Source of the DNA: Acidobacteriota bacterium
GTDB lineage: Bacteria > Acidobacteriota > UBA890 > WLXD01
Direction of reading: 5' to 3'
DNA: 64,000 nt
Assembly (NCBI GenBank): GCA_965248695.1
Contig: CBDFKD010000002.1
Location: 1,664,001-1,728,000, forward strand
How positions within the stretch are numbered: the stretch's first letter is position 1; the number at the start of each line of letters is the position of its first letter. The position numbers and the translations under genes are program-made. This document shows, in pieces, positions 1,419 to 58,555 of the stretch. Under the pieces are notes generated by a model. That model worked only from the letters and a program-made list of their open reading frames with translations, did no database searches and had not been told where the DNA came from.

Positions 1419-1440
1419 CAGTCGCCCTCAGTGGCTCCCG

Positions 1441-2445: not shown

Positions 2446-2451
2446 TATAGG

Positions 2452-2706: not shown

Positions 2707-3098
2707 TCTTCGTCGATTCCAACATCCCGATGTACTTGGTGGGGGCAGCCCATCCGAACAAGACCAGGGCACGGAAAGTGCTCGCTCAACTCGTGAGCCA
2801 GGAAGCCCGGCTGGTGACGGACGCCGAGGTTTTCCAGGAAATTCTGCATCGCTACACCGCGATCCGCAGGCCCGACGCCATCGAAGCGGCGTGGCAGCTG
2901 CTTGAAGCCCTGGTCGACGAGACCTTCCCTATCGAGCTCGCTGACGTGGAAGCGGCGCGCCGCTTGATCGACGCCAAGGGCGACGTGTCGGCGCGCGACG
3001 CCCTGCACGCCGCGATCATGCTCCACAACGACGTGGCGCAGGTGTTCAGCTTCGACACGCACTTCGACGCGCTCGACGGCATCGTGCGGCTGGCGTAG
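2703..3098 (+). CDS. vapC: PIN-domain toxin (VapC family)
   Basis: IFVDSNI, VFQEIL, RDALHAA, FSFDTHFD acidic PIN motifs; GTG start at 2703. Confidence 0.9.
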   Translation: MIFVDSNIPMYLVGAAHPNKTRARKVLAQLVSQEARLVTDAEVFQEILHRYTAIRRPDAIEAAWQLLEALVDETFPIELADVEAARRLIDAKGDVSARDALHAAIMLHNDVAQVFSFDTHFDALDGIVRLA

Positions 3099-3101
3099 GG
3101 G

Positions 3102-3917
3102 CTACTGACGGAATGCGCTCGAACTGCACCGCGTTGTGGTGTGCCGTCTACCCGAGCGAGACATCAGATCGACGGTGACCGGGTTGTGGTCGCTGAGACG
3201 CTCCCACGGCTCGCCCGTACTCACCTCGGCGGAACGCAAGCAGGCCGCCCAACTCTTCGGCACCAGGATCTCGTCGCAGTGGTACGCCGTCACCGGGTCG
3301 CGCGTCCAGCGCAGCGTCTGTGTCAGAGGCACCCCAGGGTGAATGGCTCGCCACGCGTTCGCCAATCCGAGCTCCACCTCGGTCCGCTCCAGGAAGCGCT
3401 GCTCCCCGCGGCTGTTGGCGCGCTCTTCTCCGGGGGCTCGGTGGGCAACCGTCAGATTGAAGTCGCCTCCGATCACCAGGTCACCACCAGCCGACTGTGC
3501 CGCGATACCGTCGAGCATGGCATTGGCCTCGCGCACGTAGCTTCGCCGCCGGGCCGGCACGTGCACGCTGTACACGTGCCATGGCGGCCGTCGCGGCCAG
3601 GCGGTCACCACCGCCCCGACCACCCACCCGTCGAAGCCCGGAACCGGCAGGAGCGCCCGCGGCCGCCGCGGAAGCAACAGCGCCGAACCCCATTTGCCAT
3701 GCTCTACCGGGGCCCACACAAGGCGCCCGCGCGGAATCCCGAGCTCCGCGGCGAAGTTGCGCGGATCACGCGTCTCCTGCACCAGGGCGATATCGGGGGC
3801 CAGCCGATCGATCATTTCCTGCCAGTGGCTCAGCGACCCCCCGGCTCGCATGTTGAAGGAGACGAGCCGCAGCGTGGGCGTCTCACCAGGCACTACGAGA
3901 CTCCTCCTCGCGTCCAT
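3102..3917 (-). CDS. Endonuclease/exonuclease/phosphatase (EEP) family protein
   Basis: VSFN, DIALVQE, GGDFN, SDHNPV motifs. Confidence 0.9.
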   Translation of the reverse strand: MDARRSLVVPGETPTLRLVSFNMRAGGSLSHWQEMIDRLAPDIALVQETRDPRNFAAELGIPRGRLVWAPVEHGKWGSALLLPRRPRALLPVPGFDGWVVGAVVTAWPRRPPWHVYSVHVPARRRSYVREANAMLDGIAAQSAGGDLVIGGDFNLTVAHRAPGEERANSRGEQRFLERTEVELGLANAWRAIHPGVPLTQTLRWTRDPVTAYHCDEILVPKSWAACLRSAEVSTGEPWERLSDHNPVTVDLMSRSGRRHTTTRCSSSAFRQ

Positions 3918-3955
3918 TGCTTGAACCTAATTAGTTAGTTTAGTATTGAACTAAG
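3917..3955 (+). promoter_or_regulatory. AT-rich promoter/operator of the phd-vapC module
   Basis: TTAGTT(3935-3940)...AACTAA(3949-3954) inverted repeat immediately before ATG 3956; no Shine-Dalgarno. Confidence 0.5.
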
Positions 3956-4207
3956 ATGAAGGTCAATATGCACGACGCCAAGACGAATCTGTCGCGCTAC
4001 CTGGCGCAGTTGCGCGACGGCGAGAGCATCGTTGTCTGCCGCCGCAACGTGCCGGTGGCGGAGATCCGACCCCTGCGTCCACAGCGACGCCAGCTCGCGG
4101 AGCCTGGCCGCTGGAAGGGCGCGATCAAGGTGCCGGCCGATTTCTCCGCGTCCCTCCCGGATGCACTACTCGACGCGTTCGAGGGCCTACCGAGCAGCGA
4201 GGAATGA
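3956..4207 (+). CDS. Phd/YefM-family antitoxin
   Basis: MKVNMHDAKTNLSRYL...GESIVVCRRNVPVAEIRP; ATGA overlap with toxin. Confidence 0.9.
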   Translation: MKVNMHDAKTNLSRYLAQLRDGESIVVCRRNVPVAEIRPLRPQRRQLAEPGRWKGAIKVPADFSASLPDALLDAFEGLPSSEE

Positions 4208-4590
4208 ACGTCCTCCTCGATACCGCGCCCTTCCTGTGGCTGGCCGCGGACACGCCGGCGTTGTCGAAGCGTGTCCGCGAGGTGGTTCTCGACGCAGACA
4301 ATTCGATCTTCCTCAGCGCGGTGTCGGCCTGGGAGATCGCAGTGAAGTACCGCCTGGGTCGCTTGCCCCTCCCGGAACGACCCGAGACATTGGTGCCGGC
4401 AATCCGCGACGCCTACGCCATCGAATCGCTGCCGCTGGAGGAAACGGCGACCCTACATGTGCACCGGCTGCCCGAGTACCACCGCGACCCGTTCGACCGC
4501 ATGCTGGTGTGTCAGGCGATCGCCCATGGCCTGACGCTGGCGACGCCGGACGACGCGATCCGCCGCTATCCCGTGCCGACGATCTGGTAG
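4204..4590 (+). CDS. vapC: PIN-domain toxin (VapC family)
   Basis: LLDT, SAVSAWEI, HRDPFDRMLVCQA, TPD motifs. Confidence 0.92.
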   Translation: MNVLLDTAPFLWLAADTPALSKRVREVVLDADNSIFLSAVSAWEIAVKYRLGRLPLPERPETLVPAIRDAYAIESLPLEETATLHVHRLPEYHRDPFDRMLVCQAIAHGLTLATPDDAIRRYPVPTIW

Positions 4591-4688: not shown

Positions 4689-7600
4689 CTACATGTTCCG
4701 CCGGTATTGGCCGCCGACGTCGTACAGCGCCCCCGAGAGCTGGCGCAGGCTGCAGACCTTGGCCGCTTCCATCAGCGCCTCGAACGTGTTGCCGTTGTCC
4801 ACCGCGGTATGCTGCAGGCGCTCGAGCGCGTCCCCGGCGACCGTGCCGTTGCGCTCCTGGAACGCCTGGCGCGACGCGATCGCGTACTCCTTCTCCTCGG
4901 TGGTGGAACGGAAGACATCATCGGGGATGATCGTCGGTGAGCCTTCCTCGTCGAGGAACGTGTTGACGCCGACGATCGGTAGCTCGCCGGTGTGCTTGAG
5001 GCTTTCGTAATAGTGCGACTCCTCCTGGATGCGCGAGCGCTGGTACATGCGCTCCATGGCGCCCAGCACTCCGCCGCGCTCGGAGATGTTGCGGAATTCC
5101 TGCAGTACGGCCTGCTCGACGAGCTCGGTGAGCTCCTCGATGATGAACGACCCCTGTAACGGATTCTCGTTGCGCGCCAGCCCGAGCTCCTTGTTGATGA
5201 TCAGCTGGATCGCCAGCGCCCGGCGTACGCTCTCCTCCGTCGGCGTGGTCAGCGCTTCGTCGTAGGCGTTCGTGTGCAAGGAATTGCAGTTGTCGTAGAT
5301 GGCGTAGAGCGCCTGCAACGTGGTGCGGATGTCGTTGAAGGCGATCTCCTGGGCGTGCAGCGATCGCCCCGACGTCTGGATGTGGTACTTGAGCTTCTGT
5401 GAGCGTGCGCTGCCGCCGTACTTGCGCTTGATCGCCTTGGCCCAGATGCGCCGCGCCACCCGCCCCATGACCGAATACTCGGGGTCCATGCCATTGGAGA
5501 AGAAGAACGACAGGTTCGGAGCGAAGTCGTTGATCGCCATGCCGCGCGACAGGTAGTACTCGACGAAGGTGAAGCCGTTCGCCAGCGTGAAGGCCAGCTG
5601 GCTGATGGGGTTCGCTCCGGCTTCGGCCATGTGGTACCCGGAAATAGACACCGAGTAGAAATTCCGTACCTGGTGGTCGATGAAGTACTGCTGGATGTCA
5701 CCCATCATCCGCAGCGCGAACTCGGTGGAGAATATGCAGGTGTTCTGCGCCTGGTCCTCTTTGAGGATGTCCGCCTGCACGGTGCCGCGAACACCGCGCA
5801 GCGTATCGGCCTTGATGCGCTCGTAGACCTCCCGATCCAGCACCTCATCGCCGCTGACGCCGAGAAGCGCCAACCCGAGGCCGTCGCCGTGCTCGGGCGG
5901 TGCGCCCTGATACGCCGGCCGCTCCACGCCCTTGGCGTCGTAGATCGCATCGATCTTCGCCTCGACGTCGGCTGCGAGCCCTTCACGCTGTATATGCAGC
6001 TCACACTGCTGATCGATCGCGGCGTTGAGAAAGAACGCCAGCAGCATCGGCGCCGGACCGTTGATGGTCATCGACACCGACGTCGCCGGGTCGAGCAGAT
6101 CGAACCCCGAGTAGAGCTTCTTGGCGTCGTCGACCGTACAGACGCTCACCCCGGAGTTGCCCACCTTGCCGTAGATGTCGGGACGCGGATCCGGATCCTC
6201 GCCGTACAGGGTGACGGAGTCGAACGCCGTCGACAGGCGCCGCGCAGGCATCCCGTGCGACAGGTAATGGAAGCGGTGGTTGGTGCGCTCCGGGCCACCC
6301 TCGCCGGCGAACATCCGTGCCGGGTCTTCGGTCTCAATGCGCTTGAGCGGGAATACGCCGGCAGCATACGGAAACTCGCCGGGCACGTTCTCGGTCAGCA
6401 GCCAGCGCAAGATGTCGCCCCAGTCCAGATAACGTGGCAGCACCACTTTGGGAATACGCAGGTGGGACAACGACTCGGTGAACAGCGGACGCTCGATTAC
6501 CTGGTCGCGGACTTCGTACCGGTATACGTCGGCCCTGAACCGCTCCTGGGTCGCGGGCCACTCACGTAGCAGCCGCCGGCACACGGGGTCCAGGCGCTCG
6601 TGGAGCTCGTCATGGCGTGCGACGAGCTCCGTCGGGGCCTCGGCGCCATCGGCTCGCAACTGTTCAAGAGCACCGTTCAGCTGATACAGCTTGCTGCCCA
6701 TCGCCGCCTGCTCGTCGACGAACGCGCCGTAGGCATCGCTGTCCTCGGCGATCTCGGCGAGGTAGCGGACCCGCTCGGGCGGAATCACCAGCGTCGTGGC
6801 GGCGCTCACTTCAGCGCCTAGTGGACCCGGTACCGACTCGGCACCGCGGTCCGCCAACCTGTCCATCAACACGCGATACAGGCGCGTCATGCCGGGATCG
6901 TTGAACTGCGAAGCGATCGTCGAGTACACCGGGAGCTCGTCGTCCTTTGCGTCGAAGAGCTCGTGGTTGCGCCGGTACTGCTTGCGCACGTCGCGTAAGG
7001 CATCGAGCGAGCCGCGTTTGTCGAACTTGTTGATCGCGATGACGTCGGCGAAGTCGAGCATGTCGATCTTCTCGAGCTGCGTCGCAGCGCCGTACTCGGC
7101 AGTCATCACATACACCGAGACGTCGGCGTGATCGGTGATCTCGGTGTCCGACTGCCCGATGCCGGAGGTCTCGAGGATGATGAGGTCGAAGTTCGCCGCC
7201 CGACAGATATCGAGCGCGTGCCGCACATGCTTTGACAGCGCCAGGTTCGACTGCCGCGTGGCCAGCGAGCGCATGTAGGCACGATCGCTGTCGATGGCGT
7301 TCATGCGGATGCGATCGCCAAGCAGCGCCCCTCCGGTACGGCGCTTCGAGGGATCGACGGAGATCACGGCGACGGTGGTGTCATCGGACTCGAGCAGGAA
7401 CCGACGCACGAGCTCATCCACGAGCGACGACTTGCCGGCACCGCCGGGCCCCGTAATGCCCAGCACCGGCACGGAGCCGTCCTTCGTCATCGCCTGCAGG
7501 GCAGGCTGCAACTCGGTGACGGCCTCGGGGTAGTTCTCCACCATCGTGATGAGCTGACCGATCAGCCGCGGGCTGCGCTCCGCCAGTCCGGCGAGATGGC

Positions 7601-8063
7601 CATTCGGTGTGGGACCCACGGTCGAGAAATCGCTTTGCTGCAAGAGGTCGTTGACCATCCCCTGAAGCCCGAGCTGGCGCCCGTCATCGGGTGAGTAGAC
7701 ACGTGCCACTCCATATTGATGGAGCTCATCGATCTCGGCGGGATGGATAGTGCCGCCGCCGCCGCAGAACACCTTGATGTGCCCGGCGCCGCGATCGCGC
7801 AGCAGGTCGACCATGTACTTGAAGTATTCGATGTGGCCGCCCTGATAGGACGTGACGGCAATCGCCTGCGCGTCTTCCTGGATGGCGCAGTCGACGATCG
7901 CTGCGACGGACCGGTTGTGGCCGAGATGAATGACCTCGGCGCCCGATGCCTGGAGGATGCGCCGCATGATGTTGATGGCAACGTCGTGGCCATCGAACAG
8001 TGAGGCGGCTGTCACCACGCGCACATGGTGCTCAGGCTTGTAAGGTTCGACCCGTTCTCCCAT
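4689..8063 (-). CDS. icmF: Fused isobutyryl-CoA mutase / MeaB-type GTPase chaperone
   Basis: B12-binding FDGHD domain, P-loop GPGGAGKSS, mutase [20 protein letters not shown]-terminal GGQYRRNM; start moved to ATG 8063. Confidence 0.95.
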
Positions 8064-8100
8064 CACTGCGATCTTACTTGCAGCTCCGGGAATCCGCCTG

Positions 8101-8859
8101 TCAGGCGCTCGCTTTCGCCTCGCTGCCCGCTGCTGGCAATTCGCCGAACTTGCGGCGGTAGTACCGCTCCCAGTAGCTGTTGGCAACGGTCCCGATCACC
8201 CCGGGGGCGACCCACGGCACCCAATTGAACTGCCCCAGGATCGACAAATCGAGCACTATCCTCGAACCGAACACCAGGAACGCCGTGTGGAAGGCAATGC
8301 CGGCGCCCAGCAGCGCACCCATGTGCTCGTAGAACCAGGTCATCTTCTCTGCTGGCCGCCGATACGCGTACTTGTACATCCCATGGGTGGTCAATACACC
8401 GACCGGCGAGAGGGCCAGCATGATAATTGACACGCTGGACCAGAAGAACAAAGCCCAGGCGATAACGACAGCGCTACCGACAGCCGGAAGCACCATCAGC
8501 GCGCGATACAGCGGGGTACGGATGGAGTCCGGATCGCGCCGCGTCCGCACCGCCTGTATGGCGTGGTGCGTCAGCGCGATCGTCGCGCAGCCGAGATAGA
8601 ACAGAAAGATCAGGAACCCGAAATTGGTGGCGTTGTCGGTTATCGAGGCGCCGGCAGCCAGTGCCCGGCCGATACGCAGCGGCGGCGTCAACATCGCGGA
8701 GCCCCCCACTGCGAAGGCGCACACCGCGAACACCTTCCCGAACAGCATGTGCCGCTTACCGCCCTTCTTGCTGAGGATCGGCACCCACCAGGCCGCGAGG
8801 CCTACGAATCCCAACACAATGTGGCTCCACCTGAGCACCTGAATCAGTCCTTCCATCAT
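8101..8859 (-). CDS. Multi-pass membrane protein (DUF2306-like)
   Basis: HIVLG...KKGGKRH...GKVF, WFYEHMG, about 7 hydrophobic helices; coupled to the PadR gene. Confidence 0.7.
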
Positions 8860-31794: not shown

Positions 31795-32211
31795 CTATTC
31801 GAGCAGCACGGCGCCTTCACTGGCGCTACTGACCATGCTCGAGTAGCGACGCAACCACTTGCTAGGGAACGTACCGCGGAACTCGGTGATCTCGGCAAGG
31901 CGACGACGGAGCTCATCGTCCGGGACGTCGATGTCGATGCGACGTTCGACCAGGTCGATACTGATGATGTCGCCATCCTGGACCGCCGCCAGCGGTCCGC
32001 CTGCTGCGGCTCCCGGGCTCACGTGGCCGACGCTGAGGCCACGGCTACCGCCCGAGAAACGGCCGTCGGTTTGCCCGGGGATGATGTCGATATAGCTGTT
32101 GCAAACCGCGATGAACGGCTTGCGCATGTCGGCATCGGTCACCCCCGTCGCCTTCAGGAGCGCTCGGTGCGGAGCTCGCTCGAACCCCTGTTTGATACGG
32201 TCAGATCTCAT
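31795..32211 (-). pseudogene. ilvD: Dihydroxy-acid dehydratase remnant with large in-frame internal deletion
   Basis: N-terminal MRSDRIKQGFERAPHRALLKATG...NSYIDIIPG is joined directly to C-terminal TDGRFSGG...GHVSP...WLRRYSSMVSSASEGAV; 138 aa versus about 550-560 aa normally. Confidence 0.9.
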
Positions 32212-32265
32212 CGGGTTTTTTCCGGTCTCCGGCCCGCGGCGACGCAACGGACTCGAACTAGCTAC

Positions 32266-45603: not shown

Positions 45604-47103
45604 GTGAATCGGTCCGTCGGGCAAACACGCCGAACCAAGATCGTCTGCACGATCGGTCCGGCAACGCAGGACCCAGACCAGCTGGCGGCGCTGGTCGACG
45701 CCGGCATGGATGTGGCCCGGCTGAACTTGTCGCACGGCGAGCCGGAATGGCATCGTCGGACGATCGAGCTGGTCCGACGCATCTCGGCGGAGCGCAAGCG
45801 TCCCGTCGGCGTCATGCTGGATGTTCCCGGTCCCAAGCTCCGGATCGGAAAGATTCCCAACGGACCCGTCTTTCTGGACAGCGGCTCGGTGATACGCCTG
45901 GTGCCTGGCGACGCACCCGGCGACGCCGGCGAGATCTCGGTGAACTACGCGCCGCTGGCAGACGAGGTCGAGCCGGCCGATCGGATCTTCGTCGGCGACG
46001 GAGATGTCGAGCTCCAGGTGGAGTCGATCGAACGACACGCGGTCAGCTGCCGTGTGATCTCCGGCGGACCGGTGTCCAGCCACAAGGGCATGAACTTCCC
46101 TACCAGAACCCTGTCGATACCCACCATCACACCGGCGGACCGAGCCGCGATTCAGCTCGGTGTGGAGGCCGGGGTCGATTTCGTGGCGCTTTCGTTCGTC
46201 CGCACGGCGGAGGATATCGACCCGGCGCGAGGCGTCATTCTCGAGTGCGGCGGCAACCTGCCGGTGATCGCCAAGATCGAGAAGCATGAGGCCATGCAGC
46301 ACCTGGAGGAGATCATCGAGGGGTCCGACGGTCTGCTGGTGGCGCGCGGCGATCTGGCGCTGGAGATACCGCTCGAGGAGGTACCCCGGGCCCAGAAGCG
46401 CATCATTCGCAGCGCCAATGCGGCCGGGAAGCCGGTGATCACGGCAACGCAGATGCTGCGATCGATGGTCACCGCCAGCAGGCCCACCCGCGCCGAAGCC
46501 ACCGATGTGGCGAACGCGCTCTATGACGGGACCGACGCCGTGATGCTGTCGGAGGAGACCGCGGTGGGCTCCAATCCGGTAGGTGCGGTGAACATCATGC
46601 GCCGCATCTGCATGGCAACAGAGCGCGACATGGAGCGGCACGCGCTCGACAGGAGTCTGCCGACAGAGCGTCGCGACTCGGTCCCCGATGTGGTTGCGGC
46701 GGCTGCGGGGCTGGTGGCTCGGCTCCTCGACGTGGCTGCGATCCTCGTACCAACGAGGACCGGCGGCACAGCGATCAAGATGTCCGAATTCCGGCCGCGA
46801 CAGCCGATCCTCGCCATCAGCACGCATCCGGCAACGGTTGGCAGGCTGACGCTCACATGGGGTGTGATCCCGCTGCTGGGCAACGAAGTACCGACCCATG
46901 AGGCCATGCTCGCCGAGGCAGAAGCGACGGCTCTCGATGAAGGCCTGTTGCAGGAGGGCGACCTGGTAGTCATCACCGCCGGGTTCCCCGTCGGCGGCCC
47001 GGGATCCACCAACACCGTCACGGTAAAGGCCATCGGCGAGGAACTAGCAGTGGGCGGATGGGATGATCAGCCGGCACTCTTCGCGGACCCCTGCGATGCC
47101 TGA
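45604..47103 (+). CDS. pyk: Pyruvate kinase
   Basis: RRTKIVCTIGPA, ARLNLSHG, IAKIEK, VARGDL, ATQML, DAVMLSEET. Confidence 0.97.
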   Translation: MNRSVGQTRRTKIVCTIGPATQDPDQLAALVDAGMDVARLNLSHGEPEWHRRTIELVRRISAERKRPVGVMLDVPGPKLRIGKIPNGPVFLDSGSVIRLVPGDAPGDAGEISVNYAPLADEVEPADRIFVGDGDVELQVESIERHAVSCRVISGGPVSSHKGMNFPTRTLSIPTITPADRAAIQLGVEAGVDFVALSFVRTAEDIDPARGVILECGGNLPVIAKIEKHEAMQHLEEIIEGSDGLLVARGDLALEIPLEEVPRAQKRIIRSANAAGKPVITATQMLRSMVTASRPTRAEATDVANALYDGTDAVMLSEETAVGSNPVGAVNIMRRICMATERDMERHALDRSLPTERRDSVPDVVAAAAGLVARLLDVAAILVPTRTGGTAIKMSEFRPRQPILAISTHPATVGRLTLTWGVIPLLGNEVPTHEAMLAEAEATALDEGLLQEGDLVVITAGFPVGGPGSTNTVTVKAIGEELAVGGWDDQPALFADPCDA

Positions 47104-47117
47104 GCAAGGACGCGACG

Positions 47118-47777
47118 ATGTCGACTGAGTCGATCGAGGACTACATCAAGGCGATTTTTCAGCTCGGCAGCCCTGATGGTCCGGTGCAGACGTCAGCGAT
47201 CGCCGAGCGGCTCGAGGTGCGTCCGGCCTCGGTGAGCAACATGTTGCGACGTCTGTCAAAGCTCGAACTGGTCGAGCACGAGCCCTATCGTGGCGTGATC
47301 CTGACCGACGACGGGGAGCGTCTCGCACGGCGAATGATCCGGCGGCATCGGCTGATCGAGCGGTTCCTGAGCGAGTATTTGGAGTACCCGTGGGACGAGG
47401 TGCACGCCGAGGCGGAACGTCTCGAGCACGCCGTGAGTCAGCGGTTCGTTGCCGCCCTCGACCGCCTGCTTCAGAATCCGGGCACGGACCCTCATGGAGA
47501 TCCGATCCCGGCAAGCGACGGCTCGATGGCGGAGTCCGAATACCCGCCACTGTCGGAGCTGAAAGTTGGTGAGGAGGCGACCGTGCGGCGCGTGACCGAT
47601 ACCGACGCGGACCTCCTGCGCTACCTCGGCGAGCTCGGGATCCGGCCAGATGTCGACCTGCAGCTGGTCGAGCGCGGCGCCCGAGGAGACACCATCACCG
47701 TGCGGATTGGCGACCGACTCTGCCACCTGGGCCAAGCGGCCACAGGCGGCGTATTCGTGGAACGGGTCTCGGGATAG
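47118..47777 (+). CDS. DtxR/MntR-family metal-dependent regulator with FeoA-like domain
   Basis: EDYIKAIF, RRHRLIERFL, VHAEAERLEH, DPHGDPIP. Confidence 0.95.
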   Translation: MSTESIEDYIKAIFQLGSPDGPVQTSAIAERLEVRPASVSNMLRRLSKLELVEHEPYRGVILTDDGERLARRMIRRHRLIERFLSEYLEYPWDEVHAEAERLEHAVSQRFVAALDRLLQNPGTDPHGDPIPASDGSMAESEYPPLSELKVGEEATVRRVTDTDADLLRYLGELGIRPDVDLQLVERGARGDTITVRIGDRLCHLGQAATGGVFVERVSG

Positions 47778-47833
47778 ACTCTCCGCAACGAGGTTCTGTT
47801 CGAGCACCCCAACGAGCAACAAGGTCTTCTCAG

Positions 47834-48229
47834 ATGCCCGTCTTGCGACAGATCAGCGTATTCCTGGAGAACGTTCCCGGCCGTCTGGCAACCCTGTGCA
47901 ATACCCTGGAGTCGAACGGCATCGACCTGCGGGCAATGACGACCTCGGAAGGGAGCGACTACGGCGTCGTGCGGATGCTGGTAGACGATGTCGATGCTGC
48001 CGAGGAGGTCCTACGGGCCGCAGACCTACCGTTCTCAACCGTTGAAGTGCTGGCGCTGGAGGTGTCCGACGAGCCCGGCGCGCTGGGAAAAGTCGCGGTA
48101 CGGCTAGCGGAGACCGGCATCAACGTGGAGTACGCATACGCCACCGCCGTGTCCGGAATGTCTCGCGCACTCTGCGTGTTCAAGGTGGCGGATCCACAGG
48201 GCGCCGCGGCGGCACTCGACCAGGACTAG
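47834..48229 (+). CDS. Tandem ACT-domain protein
   Basis: QISVFLENVPGRL, DEPGALG, GINVEYAYA. Confidence 0.9.
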   Translation: MPVLRQISVFLENVPGRLATLCNTLESNGIDLRAMTTSEGSDYGVVRMLVDDVDAAEEVLRAADLPFSTVEVLALEVSDEPGALGKVAVRLAETGINVEYAYATAVSGMSRALCVFKVADPQGAAAALDQD

Positions 48230-48253
48230 CGTCCTGTAGCAGAGGTTTCAGAC

Positions 48254-48679
48254 TTGGTACCGCACACCGTGGTTGTCGACTTCGCGGTGGCGCTGCTCGC
48301 CACGTCGGTTGTGTGCGACTTGCTGGCGAGCACCGTAGACGAGAAGGAGCTGCGCATCGTCGCCTCCTGGACGCTGATCTTCGGAGCGGTGGCGGCAGTG
48401 TTCGCAGTGCTCTCGGGCTACGCGGCGCACAGCGCCGCTTCGCCCACGGGCGCCGCCGATGCCGCCGTGATCCGCCACCGGCTGGCGGGCTGGATCGTGC
48501 TTTCGACCTTCGTCCCGCTCGCCGGCTGGCGACTCATGTCCCGAGGACAGCTTCCCGTTCGTGGCGCCAGCTTGTATTGGCTGCTGGCTCTGATCGGCGC
48601 CGGCGCACTGGCGATCACCGCCTACCTGGGCGGCAACGCGGTGTTCAGTCACGGCGTCGGAGTGACCCTGGCTAGCTAA
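48254..48679 (+). CDS. DUF2231-like membrane protein
   Basis: 4 TM helices, H...F..ALL, AVLSG, H, TAYLGGNAVFSHGVGV; start uncertain (TTG). Confidence 0.7.
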   Translation: MVPHTVVVDFAVALLATSVVCDLLASTVDEKELRIVASWTLIFGAVAAVFAVLSGYAAHSAASPTGAADAAVIRHRLAGWIVLSTFVPLAGWRLMSRGQLPVRGASLYWLLALIGAGALAITAYLGGNAVFSHGVGVTLAS

Positions 48680-48797
48680 CTCGCACCCGACAGTGCCCCC
48701 CGACTTCCGTGCGCCGGCCAACGCTGAGCGGTCCAAAGGGGTGCGGTGATGGGCACGAGGTTTCTCAGGTTGCTACAATCTCGTGCGGAGGAAGGCG

Positions 48798-49178
48798 ATG
48801 CGCTTCACGGAATCTGAGATTGCGATGGCCGCCCGTCTGCGTGGTGCCGGCCTTCAATGGGATCCACAGCCGGGTCATTACATCTTCGACATTGACGGCG
48901 TCATGAAAGCTGGATCGCCATTCCAGGCCAGCGTGTACCTGATCACCAGCCCGAATCAGACGGCCGCTGAGGCCGGCGGTGAAGAGGCGCTGGCGACCGG
49001 GTTTTCGTGGCTCCCGACGTGGGAGGACGCGCGCGCCTGGCTCGTCGACCGTGGAGTCACCCCTGCACAGCTGGCCGACGCGCTTAGAGGCGGGTTGGAG
49101 GATGGTCTCAGCGACCGAGAGTCGCTGTATACGCTGATCATCGAGCACCTCGAGAAGGACGCGCAGGGAAGCCCATAA
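48798..49178 (+). CDS. Hypothetical protein
   Basis: GGAGG SD; MRFTESEIAMAARLRGAGLQWDPQPGHY...WLPTWEDARAWL; TAATG coupling to the next gene. Confidence 0.75.
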   Translation: MRFTESEIAMAARLRGAGLQWDPQPGHYIFDIDGVMKAGSPFQASVYLITSPNQTAAEAGGEEALATGFSWLPTWEDARAWLVDRGVTPAQLADALRGGLEDGLSDRESLYTLIIEHLEKDAQGSP

Positions 49179-50104
49179 TGTCCGTGAAACGTATCGGGGC
49201 GCTCCGCCTCCTAATCATCGTCTGCGCCGCGCTGGTGTCTGCCTGCAACCAGACGCCGACGGAGATCACCGCGCTCCCGCGCGCTGTGGGCGAGATCCAG
49301 GCGATGCTGGTAGATGTGTCCTCGCTGCAGCCACTGGACCCGGCGAGCGAGGGTATCTACTACCTCTGGGCACTCCTCGAACGCAACGAGTCACGCAGTC
49401 TGGGAGCGTTCAACGTCGGGGCTGGCGGTCAGATAGTCGACACGACGGGGGCTGCGAAGCGCGAATTCAGCTCGGACCAATTCTCCATGCGCAAGACGCT
49501 GGGAATTCTCATTACGGTCGAATCCGACGCCGTGGCGCCGGAGTCGCCCAGTGGCATGCAGATCCTCTCCGGCACGTTCATCGAGGGAGTAGCGCGGCTC
49601 TCCGTACCGATCTCGACGGCGATCACGAGCTCCAACGGCGCCGTACGCATCTTCACTCCGACGGACGGACCGAACACGAACGAGACTTCAGGATTCTGGA
49701 TGGTCGATGGCAACGGTGATCCCCTGGTCAACGTTCCGGACACCACTGCCGCTCTCGTCTACGAGACATTCGTCGAGATCAACGGTCAATCCGTGAACGT
49801 CGGACGGTTCGATCGCCCCGACCAGAGCGACGATTTCTGCCGCTTCTGCGCTGACTTGGATCCGGCGCCCGACCGCCCGGGCGACGACCTACTGGTCAAC
49901 CCGCCCGACGGTCTGGCTTTCCCTGCCGACCTTTCGGGTGCACGCATCAGCGTGAGCCTCGAGGGCAGGTCGAACGACTTCGTAAGCCAGTCACAGTTGA
50001 TCGTGCTGGAGGGATTCGTTCCGATCGGTGTCACACCGGAGACAATTGTCTCCCTGATCAATCGCGCCGACTCCTTCCCGTCCGGCCAAGCCGTCCTTTT
50101 CTAG
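49178..50104 (+). CDS. Lipoprotein with tandem RskA-C-like (anti-sigma-K C-terminal-like) domains
   Basis: Lipobox VSAC; YYLWA...SLGAF...LITVE...PSG; second copy YETFV...VGRF...ISVSLE. Confidence 0.6.
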   Translation: MSVKRIGALRLLIIVCAALVSACNQTPTEITALPRAVGEIQAMLVDVSSLQPLDPASEGIYYLWALLERNESRSLGAFNVGAGGQIVDTTGAAKREFSSDQFSMRKTLGILITVESDAVAPESPSGMQILSGTFIEGVARLSVPISTAITSSNGAVRIFTPTDGPNTNETSGFWMVDGNGDPLVNVPDTTAALVYETFVEINGQSVNVGRFDRPDQSDDFCRFCADLDPAPDRPGDDLLVNPPDGLAFPADLSGARISVSLEGRSNDFVSQSQLIVLEGFVPIGVTPETIVSLINRADSFPSGQAVLF

Positions 50105-50113
50105 GAGCTCCGC

Positions 50114-50782
50114 GTGAACCAGCCCGTGCTTCGTGCAGTCTTGCTCCTGGCAGCGGTGGCGCTCACACCGGACCTGGCGCACGCTGCGACGCGATCCGAC
50201 GACGAGAACGAGCGCAGCGCGGCAGGCACGGTTGGCGCGTTCGACCTTCAGCAGACCATTCGACGCGACGACCGACCGCCTTCCGATCCCGTCGGTGGCT
50301 TCCAGATCAGCGTCATGGGCGGAGTGCAGATGCGCGGCTCGGCATCCGGGCAAGCCGGTCTGGCTCTCAGCTACTTCAAACGCTCTACCGGCAACGTCGG
50401 CATCGAGCTCGAAGGCGGCATCACGCGAGGCCCGAACGGCCAGATCAACCATGGCCTGCTGAGTTTCATCTTCCAGTCCGGCGGTCGGGCGAGCAAGCTG
50501 GCCCCGTACCTATCGGTGGGCGCTGGCATCTACCACGCCAACGAGCACTTACGTGACGGCGTGGCGGCGGCGCTACCGACGTTCGGCATCCAGCCCGAGG
50601 AAGGGCTCGAAACAGGGGCGCTTGTCGCCTTCGGATTAGGGTTTCGCTTCTATCTGTCGGAGGGCGTCTCTTTCCGCGCCGACTATCGGGAGATGCGCGC
50701 CATCACGACCGGCAGCGGCGGTCTGTTCGACCGCCTGTTCTCGCTGCGCCGGATCGGTGGCTTTCTGTCATTCCATCTCTAG
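50114..50782 (+). CDS. Outer membrane beta-barrel protein (small, OmpA/OmpW-like)
   Basis: Signal peptide, PYLSVGAG, FGLGFRFYL, FRADYR, aromatic C-terminal strand. Confidence 0.75.
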   Translation: MNQPVLRAVLLLAAVALTPDLAHAATRSDDENERSAAGTVGAFDLQQTIRRDDRPPSDPVGGFQISVMGGVQMRGSASGQAGLALSYFKRSTGNVGIELEGGITRGPNGQINHGLLSFIFQSGGRASKLAPYLSVGAGIYHANEHLRDGVAAALPTFGIQPEEGLETGALVAFGLGFRFYLSEGVSFRADYREMRAITTGSGGLFDRLFSLRRIGGFLSFHL

Positions 50783-50868
50783 CAGGCCGTGGTGGAAGTG
50801 TGGTGGGTCTGGTTACGACGAGTTGGGGCCAGATACAAGGCAGCCTGACGCAGGTGATGCCCTAGCAT
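50779..50868 (+). repeat. Diverged, truncated third copy of the stop-codon-associated repeat
   Basis: First 34 nt match copy 1 with 3 mismatches; then CAAGG..GACG core and a short hairpin. Confidence 0.7.
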
Positions 50869-50910
50869 GCTAGCGACGGCGATCTCGCCGAGCAGAGAAT
50901 CCGCCCTCAA

Positions 50911-51038
50911 CAGAGAATCCGCCGGACACCTGCCGGGCTAGCTCACCGGGTTCAGAGCGAGGGTCCCCTGTTTCCCCTTCCGTCCGACGTTGTCCCGGTT
51001 CCGCGAGCCAGCCCGACTGATGCCCGGCGGCCTCTTGC
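50911..51038 (-). ncRNA. Candidate sigma54-dependent small RNA (rod-like hairpin, GGA-rich)
   Basis: Begins about 12 nt after a -24/-12 promoter; 12-bp and 15-bp stems with 5 G-U pairs valid only on the minus strand; no convincing ORF. Confidence 0.65.
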
Positions 51039-51048
51039 CCTCCTACAG

Positions 51049-51065
51049 AGCAAGGAGGATGCCAA
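51049..51065 (-). promoter_or_regulatory. Sigma54 -24/-12 promoter
   Basis: TTGGCATCCTCCTTGCT: GG-N10-GC with TTGGCA and TTGCT, about 180 bp downstream of a sigma54 activator gene. Confidence 0.8.
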
Positions 51066-51243
51066 ACCGCCGTCCGCCAGACCAAAGAGACCGCTCCAGG
51101 CTGCGCGAGCTCCGCAAAGTCCCTTGTTGTCAGCAAGTTCTGCGGCCGGCTCTGAAATCCAAGAGGTCCGGCAGGGCCGGGCGCGGACGAGCACACCGAC
51201 CGGCGTACTTCAGGATCGACCGTGGACCGACGACGAGCCGTGG

Positions 51244-52770
51244 TCAGCGTCGATCCGCCGACGCCTCTTCCTCGGGCACATCGATGCCGTGCCGGCGCAG
51301 CTTGTGGTACAGAGACGTACGTGGGATCCCGAGCACGTCGGCGGCGCGCGTCTTGTTGCCTTTCACCGCGGCGAGCACACGCCGAATGTGCGTGGCCACG
51401 ACGCTATCGAGCCGCGCTCGGCCCAGATCAGCCTCCGACAGCTCGGCCCGCTCCACGGCGACGGCAGGCCCGACCTCGCTCATGGACGCTCCGATAGCCG
51501 GGGGCAGATCTTCGACGATGATCTGCGAGGTTTCCGACAACACCGCTGCCCTACGCACCGCGTTGCGTAGCTCGCGTACATTACCGGGCCAATCGAACGC
51601 TGCCAGCGCGGCCGAGGCCTCATCGCTGAACCCGGTCGGGCCGCCGCCGTTTTCCTCAACGAAATCGCGGCGAAAGTGCTCGGCGAGTAGCGGGATGTCC
51701 TCGCGGCGCTCGCGCAGTGCCGGCACACGCAGGCCGAAGACGTTGAAGCGATAGTAAAGATCCTCGCGAAAGGAGCCGTCGTCGACCAGGCCTCGCAGGT
51801 CCTGGTTGCTGGCCGCGATGAAGCGCACATCCACCCGCCGAGCGGCGCGATCTTCGCCTACTTTCTGGATCTCGCCGTACTCCAGTGCCCGCAGCAACAT
51901 GACCTGCAGCCGTGGGCTCATCGCCTCGACCTCGTCGAGAAAGAGGGTGCCCCCATCGGCGAGCTCCATCTTGCCGGCCTTGTCGCGATGGGCACCGGTA
52001 AAAGAGCCCCGCACATGGCCAAACAGCTCGGATGCGAGCAGCTCCTCGGCAAAGGCGCCGCAGTTGACGATCATCAGCTGGCGGTCGCGGCGCGGCGAGA
52101 AATAGTGCACCGCGTGGGCCAGCAGTTCCTTGCCGACACCGCTCTCTCCCGTTACGAGCACGGGCTCCTTGGTGGGTGCGACGCGCTTGACGAGCGCCTC
52201 GATATTCCGAATCTGCTTGGAGACGCCGACGATCTCGACGTTGTAGCCGCGGCGTCGTGAGTACCGCGTCAGCCACAGACGACCAATGACCATTGAGATC
52301 GCCTCGGCGAATTCTTCTAGTCGCTCCTGATGCTCGCTCGTGTAGTGATTGCGTTCGCGGGACTCGACCGACAGAACGCCGATGGCCTCGCCCTGCAACC
52401 GGATCGGAACCACCAGGTCGGCCTGGACATCCTTGAACGCCGGGAAGTAGTACGGATCCTCGCTGACATCGTTACTCATGTAGGTCTGGTTGTTGTGGTA
52501 GACCCACGTGATGATGCCTGGCGATTGGGTATCGAGCTCGAGCAGGTTCGGCAGGTCAGCCAGCAGCTCGCCTTCCTCGCGGTGCGCGACGAGTCGAACG
52601 TCTCCGTCTTCGTTTTCCATGACGAAGATCGAGCCGTAGTCGCTCTCGGTCAGCGTCTTGGCAACGTCGACGAAGTCCGCCAGCACAGGCTCGAGCACCT
52701 GGTCGCTGGGATAGGCCTCGAGGCACACCTTCTGCAGGATGTCGCGCGACAGCGCGTCGGTTGTCGACAT
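51244..52770 (-). CDS. GAF-domain sigma54 enhancer-binding protein (GAF-AAA+-Fis HTH)
   Basis: GESGVGKE, SELFGHVRGSFTGA, LFLDEV, FREDLYYR, WPGNVREL, GNKTRAADVLGIPRTSLYHKL; N-terminal GAF, no receiver domain. Confidence 0.95.
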   Translation of the reverse strand: MSTTDALSRDILQKVCLEAYPSDQVLEPVLADFVDVAKTLTESDYGSIFVMENEDGDVRLVAHREEGELLADLPNLLELDTQSPGIITWVYHNNQTYMSNDVSEDPYYFPAFKDVQADLVVPIRLQGEAIGVLSVESRERNHYTSEHQERLEEFAEAISMVIGRLWLTRYSRRRGYNVEIVGVSKQIRNIEALVKRVAPTKEPVLVTGESGVGKELLAHAVHYFSPRRDRQLMIVNCGAFAEELLASELFGHVRGSFTGAHRDKAGKMELADGGTLFLDEVEAMSPRLQVMLLRALEYGEIQKVGEDRAARRVDVRFIAASNQDLRGLVDDGSFREDLYYRFNVFGLRVPALRERREDIPLLAEHFRRDFVEENGGGPTGFSDEASAALAAFDWPGNVRELRNAVRRAAVLSETSQIIVEDLPPAIGASMSEVGPAVAVERAELSEADLGRARLDSVVATHIRRVLAAVKGNKTRAADVLGIPRTSLYHKLRRHGIDVPEEEASADRR

Positions 52771-52801
52771 GTGGTCATTCTATCGCGGCGGCGGAACCGC
52801 C

Positions 52802-54542: not shown

Positions 54543-54866
54543 TCAGTCTGCCCGCAGGTAAACCTGCGCTACCGACGGGTGCTCGGCGCGACCCACTGAT
54601 CGGACGCGACGCTCGACTCGCTGATAAAGACCGTGGGCGACGTCCTCGAATTCGTCGAGTCGCTGCATCTCGACGCCGCTGAGCTCGCCGAATAGCAACC
54701 CGATAATCTGGTGGCCAGCCGCCGAGCGGGCACGGTAGTACCCGGTCGCTGGGTCTAGCTCGCGCACGTGATCCGGCAGAAGCGCCAGGGCGCAAACAGG
54801 CATGCGGCCCAGCAAGCCGACAACGATCTCGGCCCGACACAGCTCGCCGTAGGCGAACAGATTCAA
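54543..54866 (-). CDS. Gamma-glutamylcyclotransferase (AIG2-like) family protein
   Basis: LFAYGEL, LDEFE, YQR, AQVY; overlaps the upstream stop. Confidence 0.8.
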   Translation of the reverse strand: MNLFAYGELCRAEIVVGLLGRMPVCALALLPDHVRELDPATGYYRARSAAGHQIIGLLFGELSGVEMQRLDEFEDVAHGLYQRVERRVRSVGRAEHPSVAQVYLRAD

Positions 54867-55213
54867 TCGTCGCTGTCCGTGGCGGCCTGCAGTCGATGCG
54901 CCAGTTTCTTGATCTCGCGTCGTTGCGGGAAGCTGAGATGCTGGCCCAGATCCGACTCGACGCGCAGCAACATCGTCGCCGCATCCGTGGCCGTAGCAAT
55001 CAGCTCACCCGAGGCCGAAGCCCCGTTGGTATCGGGCTCGGCACCACCGGTTCCCGGTTGCGACTCCACCCAGCGCTCGAGCTCATCCCGATCGAATCGA
55101 ACGTTGAAGCCCAGCTTGCGATGCGGAATCTTCCCGGTCCGGACCCACTCGTACAGTGTCTTGGGCCGAATGCCCAGGAAATCGGCCGCCTGATCGACGC
55201 GCCAGAGAGTCAT
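54863..55213 (-). CDS. Excisionase-like (HTH_17) DNA-binding protein with extra C-terminal helical domain
   Basis: VDQAADFLGIRPKTLYEWVRTGKIPHRKLG..VRFDRDELERW. Confidence 0.85.
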   Translation of the reverse strand: MTLWRVDQAADFLGIRPKTLYEWVRTGKIPHRKLGFNVRFDRDELERWVESQPGTGGAEPDTNGASASGELIATATDAATMLLRVESDLGQHLSFPQRREIKKLAHRLQAATDSDD

Positions 55214-55375
55214 GGATGCCCCCACCCGATGCCGGTTGCCCCCAACCGACACCCCCAAGCTATCGTTGTAGCGGACGCTTGGCAACTGACACGCGTGACC
55301 ATTTGCGCCCTTTCGGCGGCCTCCCTATACTTACTCGCCTATCTGGCTTCTCAAACTACACTGAGCCTCCGCACG

Positions 55376-55900
55376 ATGGACTCTGCGCCTACCCAGCGCC
55401 CGCGCAAGCTGCGACCGACGGACGTGCTCAAACACGAGCACCGACAGATCGAGGAGCGCCTCGAGGTGCTGTCGTCGGCCCTCAAGTCGCTAGGCAGCCA
55501 GGGAGCAGCGCCCGAGATTCTGGATCGGATCGAGGAGGTGGCGCGCTACATCGATCGCGAGATGGCAGCGCACCATCGCAAGGAAGAGGAAGGACTCTTC
55601 CCGTTGCTGGCGCAGTACCTGGACGAAGATCTTCATCTCGACGGTCGCATCGCCGATCACGAAGATCTCAAGATCATGAGCGGCAAGTTCAAACAGACCC
55701 TCGAGGATTGTCGTAGCGCCAGCGACCACTTCGCGGCCCAGATGCTCAGAGGCTATGGGCTGTACATCGTCCACCTCGTGCTCGAACATTTGCTCAAAGA
55801 GGACGAGATCCTCTTCCTGGTCGCCGACCGTTATCTGAGCGACGAGCAAGAGGCGGAGATCTTCCAGCGCTTCGGCGAGATCGACGCCGCCGTCTCCTGA
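55376..55900 (+). CDS. Hemerythrin-like (HHE) domain protein
   Basis: EHRQI, HHRKEEEGLFP, DH, EHLLKEDEILF. Confidence 0.9.
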   Translation: MDSAPTQRPRKLRPTDVLKHEHRQIEERLEVLSSALKSLGSQGAAPEILDRIEEVARYIDREMAAHHRKEEEGLFPLLAQYLDEDLHLDGRIADHEDLKIMSGKFKQTLEDCRSASDHFAAQMLRGYGLYIVHLVLEHLLKEDEILFLVADRYLSDEQEAEIFQRFGEIDAAVS

Positions 55901-55974
55901 TCGCCGCGCCAGCGACGCGCTTTCGCCCCTCGGTCGCCAAACGCTGTGTCCTTGTGTCCGCTCGCTTCGGAGTT

Positions 55975-55996
55975 ATACCATACCCCCCTATGGTAT
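55975..55996. promoter_or_regulatory. CsoR operator
   Basis: ATACCATA-CCCCCC-TATGGTAT: AT-rich inverted repeat around a C-tract, 28 bp upstream of csoR. Confidence 0.88.
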
Positions 55997-56024
55997 TTAG
56001 ATTTCACCGACATCGAGACGAGTC

Positions 56025-56309
56025 ATGAACAGCCCAAGTCAGGGAGCGCCACATCACGACGAGATCCGTCGGCTACGTCGCATCGAAGGACAGATCCGAG
56101 GTCTGCAGCGCATGATCGAGGATAATCGATACTGCATCGACATACTCACGCAGACGCGCTCGGCGCAGCGCGCCCTCCAGCGCGTCAACGACTCCATCCT
56201 CGCGCGCCACCTGCGGCATTGCGTCATGCAGGCGGCCAAGAGCGGCAGCGCACGCGTGCGCGACGAGCGTGTCGACGAGGTCATGCAAGTACTGGAGCGC
56301 GGACGATGA
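56025..56309 (+). CDS. csoR: CsoR/RcnR-family copper-sensing repressor
   Basis: [27 protein letters not shown]...HLRHC. Confidence 0.95.
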
Positions 56310-58555
56310 GCGCCGCGGCAACCGTGCGCACCTTGCCGGTGCGCGGTATGCACTGTGCCTCCTGCGCTGGCAATGTGGCGCGTGCCCTGCAGGCGCTTCC
56401 AGGCGTGGGAGATGCCACCGTCAACCTGGCGACCGAGAGAGTGCGCGTCGAGTTCGACGCCGCCAGCGTCGAGCTCGCTGCCCTTGCGGACGCGGTGTCA
56501 GCGGCCGGGTTTGAGCTCGTGACGGAACCCACGGGCGCTCCCTCGTCAGTCACCGAGAGCGGCGGTCGGACAGCACTGCGCGAGGCCCAGGGGCGCGTCT
56601 TCTTCGCGTGGCTGTTCACCCTGCCGATCATGCTGATCATGGCGGGCAGCTGGGCGTTCGGCAGCCCGTGGCCCGATCCTCTACTGCATCGGCTGTTGAT
56701 GCTGGTCTTGGCGTTTCCCGTACTGTTCGTGGTCGGCAACGAGACCCTCTCCAGCGCTGCGGCGGCGGTACGCCGACGCGCCCCCAACATGGACGTGCTC
56801 ATCGCCCTCGGCACCCTGGCGGCCTATACCAGCGGGCTGCTGGCGCTATTCACGCCAGTCGCCAGCTTCTCGGGTATCGCGGCGATGATCATGGCTTTCC
56901 ACCTAACCGGTCGTTACATCGAAACCAAGGCTCGGGGACGCGCCTCTGACGCCATTCGTCGCTTGGTGGAGCTCGGTGCCAAGAGCGCCCGCGTCGAGAT
57001 CGACGGGCAGGAACGCGAAGTCGACATCGAGGACGTCGGTGTCGGCGACGTGATGATCGTACGGCCGGGCGAACGCATACCCACCGACGGTATTGTGGTC
57101 GAAGGCAGCAGTGCCATCGACGAATCGATGGCAACGGGTGAGCCGCTGCCCGTCGCCAAGCAGCCGGGCGACGAGGTCATCGGCGCGACGCTCAACCAAC
57201 GTGGCCGCCTACGAGTTCGGGCTACACGCATCGGCAGCGACACCTTCTTGGCGCAGGTCATCCAGCTGGTCGAGCAATGTCAGTCGACGAGGGTACCGAT
57301 CCAGCTGCTCGCCGATCGCGTCACCGCCGTGTTCGTGCCGACCTCGCTGTTGATCGCGTCGCTGACCTTCATCGGCTGGATTGTGGCCCCCGGCGTCCTC
57401 GGCGCCGGGGCCCGCGCCGCGGCTGCCGTCCTCCCCTGGGTAAACCCCGACCTGGGGGTCGTCTCCCTGGCAGTGTTCGCCGCCGTCGCGGTGCTGGTCA
57501 TCGCCTGCCCTTGCGCCCTCGGCCTCGCCACCCCGACAGCACTGATGGTGGGCACCGGGCGCGCGGCGGAGAGCGGCATACTCTTCCGCTCCGGAGCGGC
57601 GCTGCAAGCACTCGTGGACGCCGACGTCATCGCTTTCGACAAGACGGGTACGTTGACCGCCGGTCGCACGCAGTTGACCGGCATGACGGTCGCCGCCGGT
57701 GGCGATGAGAACGAGAGCCTACGCCTGGCGGCAGCGGTCGAGAATGCGTCAGAGCACCCGCTTGCCGCTGCCGTCGTCGAGGCGGCGCGTACGCGGGGTC
57801 TCGACCTTCCAGCCGCCGCCGAGTTCGAAGCAATCGTCGGGCGAGGCGTAGTGGCACGGGTACTCGACAGACAGGTGGTCGTGGGGAGCCCGGTCCTGAT
57901 GCGCGAGCGCGACATCGCGCTCGGACCGCTCGAAGCGGAAGCGACCCGAGTCGAGGAATCCGCCGAGACCGCGATCATCGTCAGCATTGATGGACAGGCC
58001 AGCGCGCTGCTGGCGATCAGCGACCCGCTGAAGGACGATTCCGCCGCCGCCGTGGCACAGCTGCGCGCCCTCGGTCTGGAGCCGTTGATGCTCACCGGCG
58101 ACAACGAGCGCACCGCCGCTGCGATCGCGGCGCAGGTCGGGATCGTCGAAGTGGAGGCCGGCCTCCTTCCCGGCACCAAGCTCGATCGGATTCGCCGCCA
58201 TCAAGAGGACGGCAAGAAGGTCGTCATGGTTGGCGACGGCATCAACGATGCCCCCGCTCTCACCCAGGCCGACGTTGGGGTGGCGATCGGCACCGGTACC
58301 GACATCGCCATCGAGGCGGCCGACGTGACCGTGGTGCGCGGCGATCTCGAGTCGGTTGCCCGCGCCGTTCGGATCGCGCGCCGAACGTTCGCGATCATCC
58401 GGCAGAACCTGTTCTGGGCGTTCTTCTACAACGTCGTCGCCATCCCGGTGGCAATCCTGGGGCTGCTGCATCCGGTGCTGGCCGAGCTGGCGATGGCGCT
58501 CTCGTCGTTGACCGTTGTCGGCAACGCGTTGCGTCTACGGCGCGGGAGCTTCTGA
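56306..58555 (+). CDS. copA: Cu(I)-exporting P1B-1 ATPase
   Basis: [36 protein letters not shown]. Confidence 0.95.

Follow-up and report, generated by a model that had tools for sequence, protein, structure and literature searches.

A candidate sigma-54-dependent small RNA gene adjoining a GAF-domain activator gene in Acidobacteriota

The 64,000-nucleotide (nt) stretch of DNA analyzed here (the window; positions 1,664,001 to 1,728,000 of contig CBDFKD010000002.1 of an Acidobacteriota bacterium, assembly GCA_965248695.1) carries on its minus strand a gene for a sigma-54 activator with a GAF domain, followed by a sigma-54-type promoter motif and a long, rod-shaped hairpin. The most likely explanation, to which we give a probability of about three in four, is that promoter and hairpin form a stand-alone sigma-54-transcribed gene for a structured small RNA (sRNA) of ~125-135 nt, most probably switched on by the adjacent GAF enhancer-binding protein. 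Such a gene had been proposed in a first-pass annotation made from the letters of the window, with the added suggestion that the RNA might serve as a GGA-rich protein sponge. The relevant elements of the locus, in the direction of transcription, are the following.

51244-52770, minus strand: sigma-54 activator gene; 508 aa, with an N-terminal GAF domain, an AAA+ sigma-54 interaction domain and a C-terminal HTH_8 domain.
51218-51262, minus strand: candidate upstream activator sequence, consisting of three abutting dyad-like 14-mers, GTCGGCGGATCGAC, GACCACGGCTCGTC and GTCGGTCCACGGTC.
51049-51064, minus strand: putative sigma-54-type promoter TGGCAT-CCTCC-TTGCT (TGGCATCCTCCTTGCT), with the -24 GG and the -12 GC at exact spacing.
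51031-51041, minus strand: predicted start (~51038, from the spacing to the -12 GC) and short, non-conserved 5' leader.
50919-51030, minus strand: rod hairpin of 112 nt, with a basal stem of 12 + 13 bp separated by an A-A mismatch, a 6-bp middle helix and the apical module.
50952-50989, minus strand: nearly invariant apical module, CGUCGGACGGAAGGGGAAACAGGGGACCCUCGCUCUGA, the presumed effector part.
50907-50918, minus strand: U-enriched 3' tail, AUUCUCUGUUGA, which together with the G+C-rich basal stem makes a weak intrinsic-terminator-like end.

The evidence that carries this reading is comparative, and it strongly supports an RNA gene with its own promoter tied to the activator gene. Species-representative genomes were scanned with a 100-residue GAF block aligned from 12 activator orthologues, yielding 28 loci: 15 orthologous ones (L001-L015, 64-97% identity in the GAF block) and 13 distant ones (L016-L028). 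The orthologous loci are from Acidobacteriota or Acidobacteria metagenome-assembled genomes, except for L008, which is labelled "uncultured bacterium". The distant loci encode GAF proteins of Chloroflexota and were used as negative controls. (Counts out of 16 refer to the window plus L001-L015.) The RNA and the exact promoter pattern adjoin the activator gene in all 16 loci, downstream and in tandem in 13, upstream and divergent in three. In the tandem relatives (12 of the 15), the promoter follows the activator stop by 172-237 nt on the same strand. In the divergent loci, L004-L006, the RNA is found ~240 bp upstream of the activator start and is directed away from the activator. By gene-order comparison, only the activator gene is inverted in these loci (inverted segments: L004, 4365-6236; L005, 4358-6236; L006, 1644-3519); its neighbors are a TPR gene at one end and, at the other, the RNA with an outer-membrane barrel gene, and the place and orientation of the RNA relative to the barrel gene are unchanged. 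The first-pass annotation had likened the locus to nla19-pxr and cbrB-crcZ, in which a sigma-54 activator gene adjoins an sRNA gene, and had asked for conservation next to the activator orthologues; the predicted arrangement is kept in 16/16 loci, which supports the comparison as one of architecture, not of homology.

The hairpin between 51030 and 50919 folds as it was originally drawn, with an 11-nt GAAACAGGGGA loop. Its minimum free energy (MFE) structure has 41 pairs, of which 29 are G-C, 7 A-U and 5 G-U. Five G-U pairs had been assigned to the two long stems; this count holds with the longer second stem drawn in that annotation, while in the MFE structure the long stems have four and the remaining one is in the UCGGA/UCUGA helix. 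The claimed strand asymmetry in favor of a minus-strand RNA was borne out: 146 nt of the minus strand fold at -77.5 kcal/mol (z -4.0, with 0/200 shuffles as good), compared to -54.8 kcal/mol for the plus strand (z -1.5, 13/200 shuffles as good). The rod recurs in all 16 RNAs, with 150 nt folding at -71 to -95 kcal/mol, and G-U is common among their pair types, in keeping with the strand on which the promoter lies.

A covariance model, R1, was built from the window and the 12 tandem loci, leaving out L004-L006. It has exactly one strong match per source in all 16 loci (99-141 bits; 27-47 bits on the reverse strand); the window RNA scores 113.5 bits on the minus strand vs. 37.1 bits on the opposite strand. 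The three divergent loci, although they lay outside model building, match at 99-105 bits, and in the 13 control loci R1 found nothing apart from one noise match (E 0.57). RNAalifold predicts the rod from a MAFFT alignment, which is not fitted to structure, with 12/37 pairs changed on both sides. In the model-fitted alignment of the 16 sequences, 19/43 pairs are changed on both sides, and none of 500 shuffles reaches the observed covariation score; standard pairs fill 96.2% of the cells, vs. 29-52% after sliding the partners by 1-3 columns. Several pairs occur as three or four pair types (e.g., C-G 6, A-U 5, U-A 4, U-G 1) and therefore record more than one event. There is one RNA copy in the window and one in each locus of 5.7-10.3 kb by R1, and the hairpin arm has no second copy in the 64-kb window. 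(A dispersed repeat, akin to a repetitive extragenic palindrome or a miniature inverted-repeat transposable element, is ruled against, within the loci and the window, by this single copy.) The comparison shows a strand-specific, covarying RNA structure with a conserved promoter motif at a fixed distance, present once and always beside the activator gene.

The promoter motif TTGGCATCCTCCTTGCT was confirmed at 51065-51049 on the minus strand, 179-180 nt beyond the activator stop. The exact pattern TGGCAY-N5-TTGCW has a single match in the window, where 0.08 would be expected, and 8/100 shuffles have a match. With one mismatch allowed, there are two matches vs. 2.3 expected, which is the chance level; the match in the window is therefore only suggestive when taken alone and could not settle the promoter. 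Among the related loci, each of L001-L015 has one exact match, always ahead of the RNA, and L016-L028 have none. Both promoter elements are kept in 16/16 loci while the N5 spacer varies, and the distance from promoter to conserved RNA core is 73-81 nt throughout. The RNA of L004-L006 has its own promoter motif, TGGCATCGAGATTGCT or TGGCATCAGGTTTGCT. No sigma-70-like promoter was found by a promoter scan of 50600-51400. Transcription from sigma-54 promoters usually starts 11-13 nt past the -12 GC; the R1 match in the window starts at 51041. The sigma-54 holoenzyme is unable to open promoters unless an AAA+ activator is bound upstream.

Is the neighboring protein such an activator? Its open reading frame (ORF), which ends in a TGA at 51246-51244, matches Sigma54_activat (5.6e-62), GAF_2 (6.3e-14) and HTH_8 (2e-9) in Pfam, and AAA_lid_14 is also present. 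The G[S/A]FTGA loop and the Walker A sequence GESGVGKE are retained in 21/21 aligned orthologues. With an AAA+ domain bearing the GAFTGA loop plus a helix-turn-helix, the predicted protein has what defines a bacterial enhancer-binding protein. Response_reg is not among its Pfam matches and its N-terminus is a GAF domain, so it is not a receiver-domain response regulator. It falls under every NCBIfam equivalog cut-off, including those of NifA (319.8 vs. 528.9 bits), NorR (313.1 vs. 476 bits), PrdR (308.8 vs. 795 bits) and FhlA (238 vs. 830 bits). The orthologue group is sharply delimited, with ~60 clusters at 63-95% identity and the next relatives dropping to 41%, and the GAF domain has invariant stretches specific to the group in the alignment of orthologues. 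Among solved structures, those of small stand-alone GAF proteins come nearest to it (Ta0848, E 8.5e-8), and therefore no ligand can be named for it.

The three 14-mers run across the final codons and the stop of the activator gene and are ~154-198 bp upstream from the T of TGGCA. With a Gibbs sampler, a 14-mer resembling GWCC-RCAT-WTCGWC was recovered from 12/12 representative upstream regions, at -141 to -211 from the promoter and in either orientation; examples of these dyad-like sites are GACCGCATATCGTC and GTCGATATATCGAC. The motif has an information content of 12.7 bits, vs. 9.2-10.0 in 12 shuffled sets, and a pattern defined after seeing the sites matches 15/16 loci. Since scores of this kind are raised by the relatedness of the sequences and the pattern was drawn up post hoc, we treat the 14-mers as a lead, i.e., as candidate sites at which the activator might bind. 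Among the matches to the pattern in the window, two precede the RNA promoter and another overlaps the activator start codon. This last copy, GACCACATGTCGAC (52763-52776, minus strand), covers the activator's own ATG, and in L001-L003 a copy, GACCGCATGTCGAC, likewise overlaps the activator ATG (~4733-4746); sites in this position may serve autoregulation. Short motifs of this type thus occur on both sides of the activator, the sole gene that is inverted in L004-L006.

The two parts of the hairpin appear to be under different constraints. In the apical module, a 5-bp helix is followed by a 1x1 loop, 2 bp and a GA bulge, and then by a G/C helix of 4-5 bp with a purine-rich loop of 11-15 nt. In the 16 sequences, 29/38 ungapped apical columns are invariant vs. 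14/58 in the basal stem, and the center of the conserved block, CGUYGGACGGAAGGGGA...GGGGACCC(C)UCGCUC, hardly varies among the 12 tandem loci, whose flanks differ. To judge from the alignment, the apical module is constrained as sequence; its helix, being near-invariant, gives no covariation evidence for or against its pairing. In the 11 nt past the stem, the U fraction over the 16 loci is 0.34, vs. 0.146 for the whole RNA. (At the foot of the hairpin in the window there is an exact 13-nt direct repeat, CAGAGAATCCGCC on the plus strand, at 50893-50905 and 50911-50923, 18 nt apart, which duplicates the hairpin's 3' foot and tail; it was not seen in L001.)

How would such a gene work? We infer transcription, its dependence on RpoN and on the activator, a binding site, processing and a target along the following lines. 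The activator would bind the dyad-like 14-mers, ~170-235 bp upstream of the start site; upon a signal sensed by the GAF domain, it would assemble and spend ATP on opening the -24/-12 promoter. The transcript would consist of a short leader and one long rod hairpin, presumably ended and stabilized by the covarying G+C-rich basal stem and the U-enriched tail. With ~26 nearly perfect bp, the basal stem would be long enough for an RNase III substrate. The ~40-nt apical module, with its bulges and its purine-rich AAAC(C)AGGGGA loop, would act in trans, either on a pyrimidine-rich RNA site or on a specific protein.

Several points count against a sigma-54-driven sRNA gene under control of its neighbor. 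The 16 RNA sequences form three clades, so that many compensatory cells reflect common descent and not independent change. The link between RNA and activator is drawn from their adjacency and from a post hoc motif, and the 14-mer pattern, with five matches in the window vs. 4.04 expected, is not above chance there. No rpoN was seen among the 55 window ORFs of at least 70 aa. The tail has no canonical U-run and a simple terminator scan gives no call; such a weak terminator-like end would allow read-through into the same-strand gene found in seven loci. For a base-pairing sRNA, the RNA would be unusual in offering so few single-stranded stretches, and seed and duplex searches of the window and all loci gave no conserved target site nearby. 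All 16 loci are from uncultured genomes.

The target searches took three forms. An exact-seed search with the complement of the loop in the 16 loci returned nothing but the antisense strand of the RNA itself and a scatter of matches in coding sequence. When duplex energies of the apical module were calculated against 55 translation-start regions of the window, the junction upstream of the barrel gene (50114) came out on top, at -41 kcal/mol with a median of -28. The orthologous barrel junctions range from -25.6 to -41.9 kcal/mol, with a pairing register that differs between them, and their C/U-rich site is a conserved Phe-Pro coding motif. A sliding duplex scan of all loci found no gene family recurring among the top sites. 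The barrel junction was rejected as evidence for a target, since the register varies, the site is a Phe-Pro coding motif and no family recurs.

What else might the hairpin be? The sponge suggested by the first-pass annotation would be of the CsrA/RsmA type, with GGA motifs titrating the CsrA dimer. The consensus for CsrA ligands is ANGGA in a loop, and the apical loop, ACAGGGGA or ACCAGGGGA, with an ACGGA ~15-20 nt upstream, resembles such sites; moreover, four of the six GGAs of the window RNA are within the invariant module. The six triplets are present as described, at hairpin positions 29-65, but they are not enriched: shuffles have a mean of 3.2, and 131/2000 reach at least six, so that the count is within what composition gives. 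About half of the GGAs are paired, and the RNA is a single rod rather than a series of short hairpins with GGA loops. Even with E allowed up to 10, the RNA matches none of the Csr/Rsm families in Rfam, and no csrA was seen among the scanned window ORFs of 70 aa or more. We consider the sponge unlikely; as an explanation of the hairpin it is neither needed nor supported. The hairpin could also be a cis-acting leader or attenuator, with the sigma-54 promoter serving a downstream protein gene. It had been argued that no downstream gene could use the promoter, and this is correct for the window, whose next gene, the outer-membrane barrel gene (50114-50782, plus strand), converges on the RNA, but not for 7/16 of the related loci. 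The gene after the RNA is convergent in nine of the loci and on the same strand in seven, where it starts ~50-260 nt past the RNA, between the RNA and the barrel gene, and encodes an aldehyde dehydrogenase in three (L007, L008 and L011) and lpxA in four (L009, L010, L012 and L015). The absence of a strong terminator in the 3' tail would also suit a leader. That the follower is convergent in nine loci, where RNA and promoter are equally conserved, and of two kinds in the other seven argues against a leader dedicated to one gene, as does the lack of conservation between the RNA and those genes. A leader is thus quite improbable. (Regarding these followers, in one clade lpxA comes directly after the RNA on its strand, either alone (L009, 4897-5685, and L010, L012 and L015) or, in three loci, with an aldehyde dehydrogenase gene before it (L007, 6690-8937, and L008 and L011); in L011, aldehyde dehydrogenase and lpxA read as a single 746-aa frame.)

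The same stable, G+C-rich stem might do nothing more than terminate transcription, either of the activator gene or, bidirectionally, of the convergent genes between which it does lie in the window, or it might be a repeat element, in each case combined with a chance match to a promoter. The divergent arrangement already speaks against a terminator, since in L004-L006 the hairpin is upstream of the activator and directed away from it. A chance match would hardly be kept in 16/16 loci while its spacer varies, a terminator has no need for ~40 nt of invariant apical sequence, and a repeat is at odds with one copy per locus and none elsewhere in the 64 kb. These alternatives have very little probability in our estimation. 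Finally, an open frame of 108 aa (50870-51196, minus strand) spans the RNA region and might encode a small protein. This ORF has no Pfam match, however, and conservation tracks base pairs, not codons; between clades, the conserved block shows indels of 4 nt in the loop and of 6 nt in the 3' strand, which excludes a conserved reading frame. A protein-coding role for this segment is close to negligible.

The sRNA-gene reading can be taken a step further, into a scheme that we consider doubtful. In this scheme the locus would be a one-component signal-to-RNA module, in which the cytoplasmic GAF sensor-activator has the rod precursor as its sole direct output. RNase III would cut the covarying 26-bp basal stem of the precursor, much like a microRNA precursor, and release the invariant stem-loop of ~40-60 nt, to be recognized by a dedicated protein partner other than CsrA or Hfq. 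The module could be tied to its neighbors (the anti-sigma-like protein, barrel, MntR, hemerythrin and copper ATPase) in a metal/redox stress response. If true, this would give Acidobacteriota their first defined sRNA circuit.

Does the RNA belong to a known family? The earlier description of it as uncharacterized stands. A search of Rfam 15 gave no match at gathering score in the window, L004, L007 or L012, and at E up to 10 the RNA region has only weak chance matches, to microRNA precursors, P4, sot2652 and Xoo5. The best sub-threshold matches (window, 50919-51049; L007, 6485-6624) are to MIR1437, mir-763 and mir-341, at 20-21 bits; the matches to microRNA precursors reflect the long, near-perfect rod, not homology. 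There was no Rfam match of the RNA to the known sigma-54 sRNA families Pxr, CrcZ, NrsZ, Qrr and GlmY/Z, which we presume to be included in Rfam 15. The RNA is not described in the literature on Acidobacteria, sigma-54, sRNA and RpoN that was searched, and no paper on a sigma-54-dependent sRNA in Acidobacteriota was found there; subscription journals and supplements were not covered.

Counterparts exist on the level of architecture. In Myxococcus xanthus and other Cystobacterineae, pxr is a 108-nt sRNA gene downstream of, and on the same strand as, the sigma-54 regulator gene nla19, at a position conserved among relatives (PMC5568312). The spacer of 262 nt described there has a sigma-54 promoter, predicted along with an enhancer site, and the arrangement is comparable to the 172-237 nt from stop to promoter found here (PMC5568312). 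There are differences too: Pxr is predicted to have three stem-loops and Nla19 is described as a response regulator, whereas this RNA is one rod and this activator has a GAF domain; the two RNAs have no sequence or Rfam similarity and belong to different phyla. In Pseudomonas, crcZ is located immediately downstream of cbrB. CbrB directly activates crcZ from upstream binding subsites, and the case of crcZ (and crcY) is again one of a sigma-54 activator directly driving an sRNA gene (PMC6296734). CrcZ, unlike this RNA, sequesters Crc/Hfq via A-rich motifs, which are missing here; CbrB is part of a two-component system, and the CrcZ family of Rfam does not match. Further sigma-54-dependent sRNAs under NtrC-family activators are those of ntrC-nrsZ in Pseudomonas aeruginosa, luxO-qrr in Vibrio and glrR-glmY in Enterobacteria; NtrC, LuxO and GlrR are receiver-domain activators fed by kinases. 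NrsZ is reported to be induced by NtrB/C (PMC4253122). NrsZ, Qrr and GlmY differ from the present RNA in their folds, and none of them matches in Rfam. Qrr and NrsZ rely on single-stranded seeds for base pairing of the Hfq type, whereas the present rod has a single-stranded seed only in its apical loop. By analogy, the RNA probably works like those of nla19-pxr and cbrB-crcZ, yet it is outside those RNA families, and we regard it as a well-supported candidate for an sRNA family of its own.

Acidobacteriota are among the most abundant soil bacteria, and the candidate sRNA family would be one from a poorly studied phylum. It would extend the design of a sigma-54 activator gene with an adjacent sRNA gene from the two-component regulators of proteobacteria and myxobacteria to a GAF one-component sensor. 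The locus amounts to a compact putative circuit specified at the sequence level, comprising sensor-activator, candidate binding sites, promoter and RNA, which could be transferred to a reporter host with no need to culture the organism. The split into a covarying basal stem and an invariant apical module marks the nucleotides that are relevant to a search for the partner.

The gene order around the RNA is also conserved. On the strand of the RNA, genes for an HTH_17 protein, a GGACT protein, a TPR protein and the activator precede it. The genes that converge on it encode an MntR-like repressor, an ACT protein, a DUF2231 protein, a 131-aa protein, a 308-aa protein and the outer-membrane barrel, and further out are a hemerythrin protein and a heavy-metal P-type ATPase (CopA-like). 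These conserved neighbors have a metal/redox flavor (window, 45604-50782, plus strand, and 54543-58555); the repressor is of the MntR/DtxR type with a FeoA domain. The 308-aa protein has a lead as an RskA_C-like anti-sigma factor, which comes only from the language-model features of a protein atlas (score 0.96; family on 13-66% of members); the atlas gave nothing for the 131-aa protein.

Elsewhere in the window, a gene at 31795-32247 (minus strand), beside ilv genes, was detected only as the C-terminal part of a dihydroxy-acid dehydratase (ILV_EDD_C, 150 aa). The ~500 nt upstream of this ORF are without a gene call; either the ORF filter cut it or the gene is broken. A toxin-antitoxin-like cluster at 888-4590 comprises an AbiEii-like nucleotidyltransferase, two PIN-domain proteins and a Phd/YefM antitoxin. 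A gene at 4689-8186 (minus strand) encodes a 1165-aa protein in which a B12-binding domain is fused to a MeaB GTPase and a methylmalonyl-CoA mutase domain; we take this protein to be an IcmF-like fused mutase.

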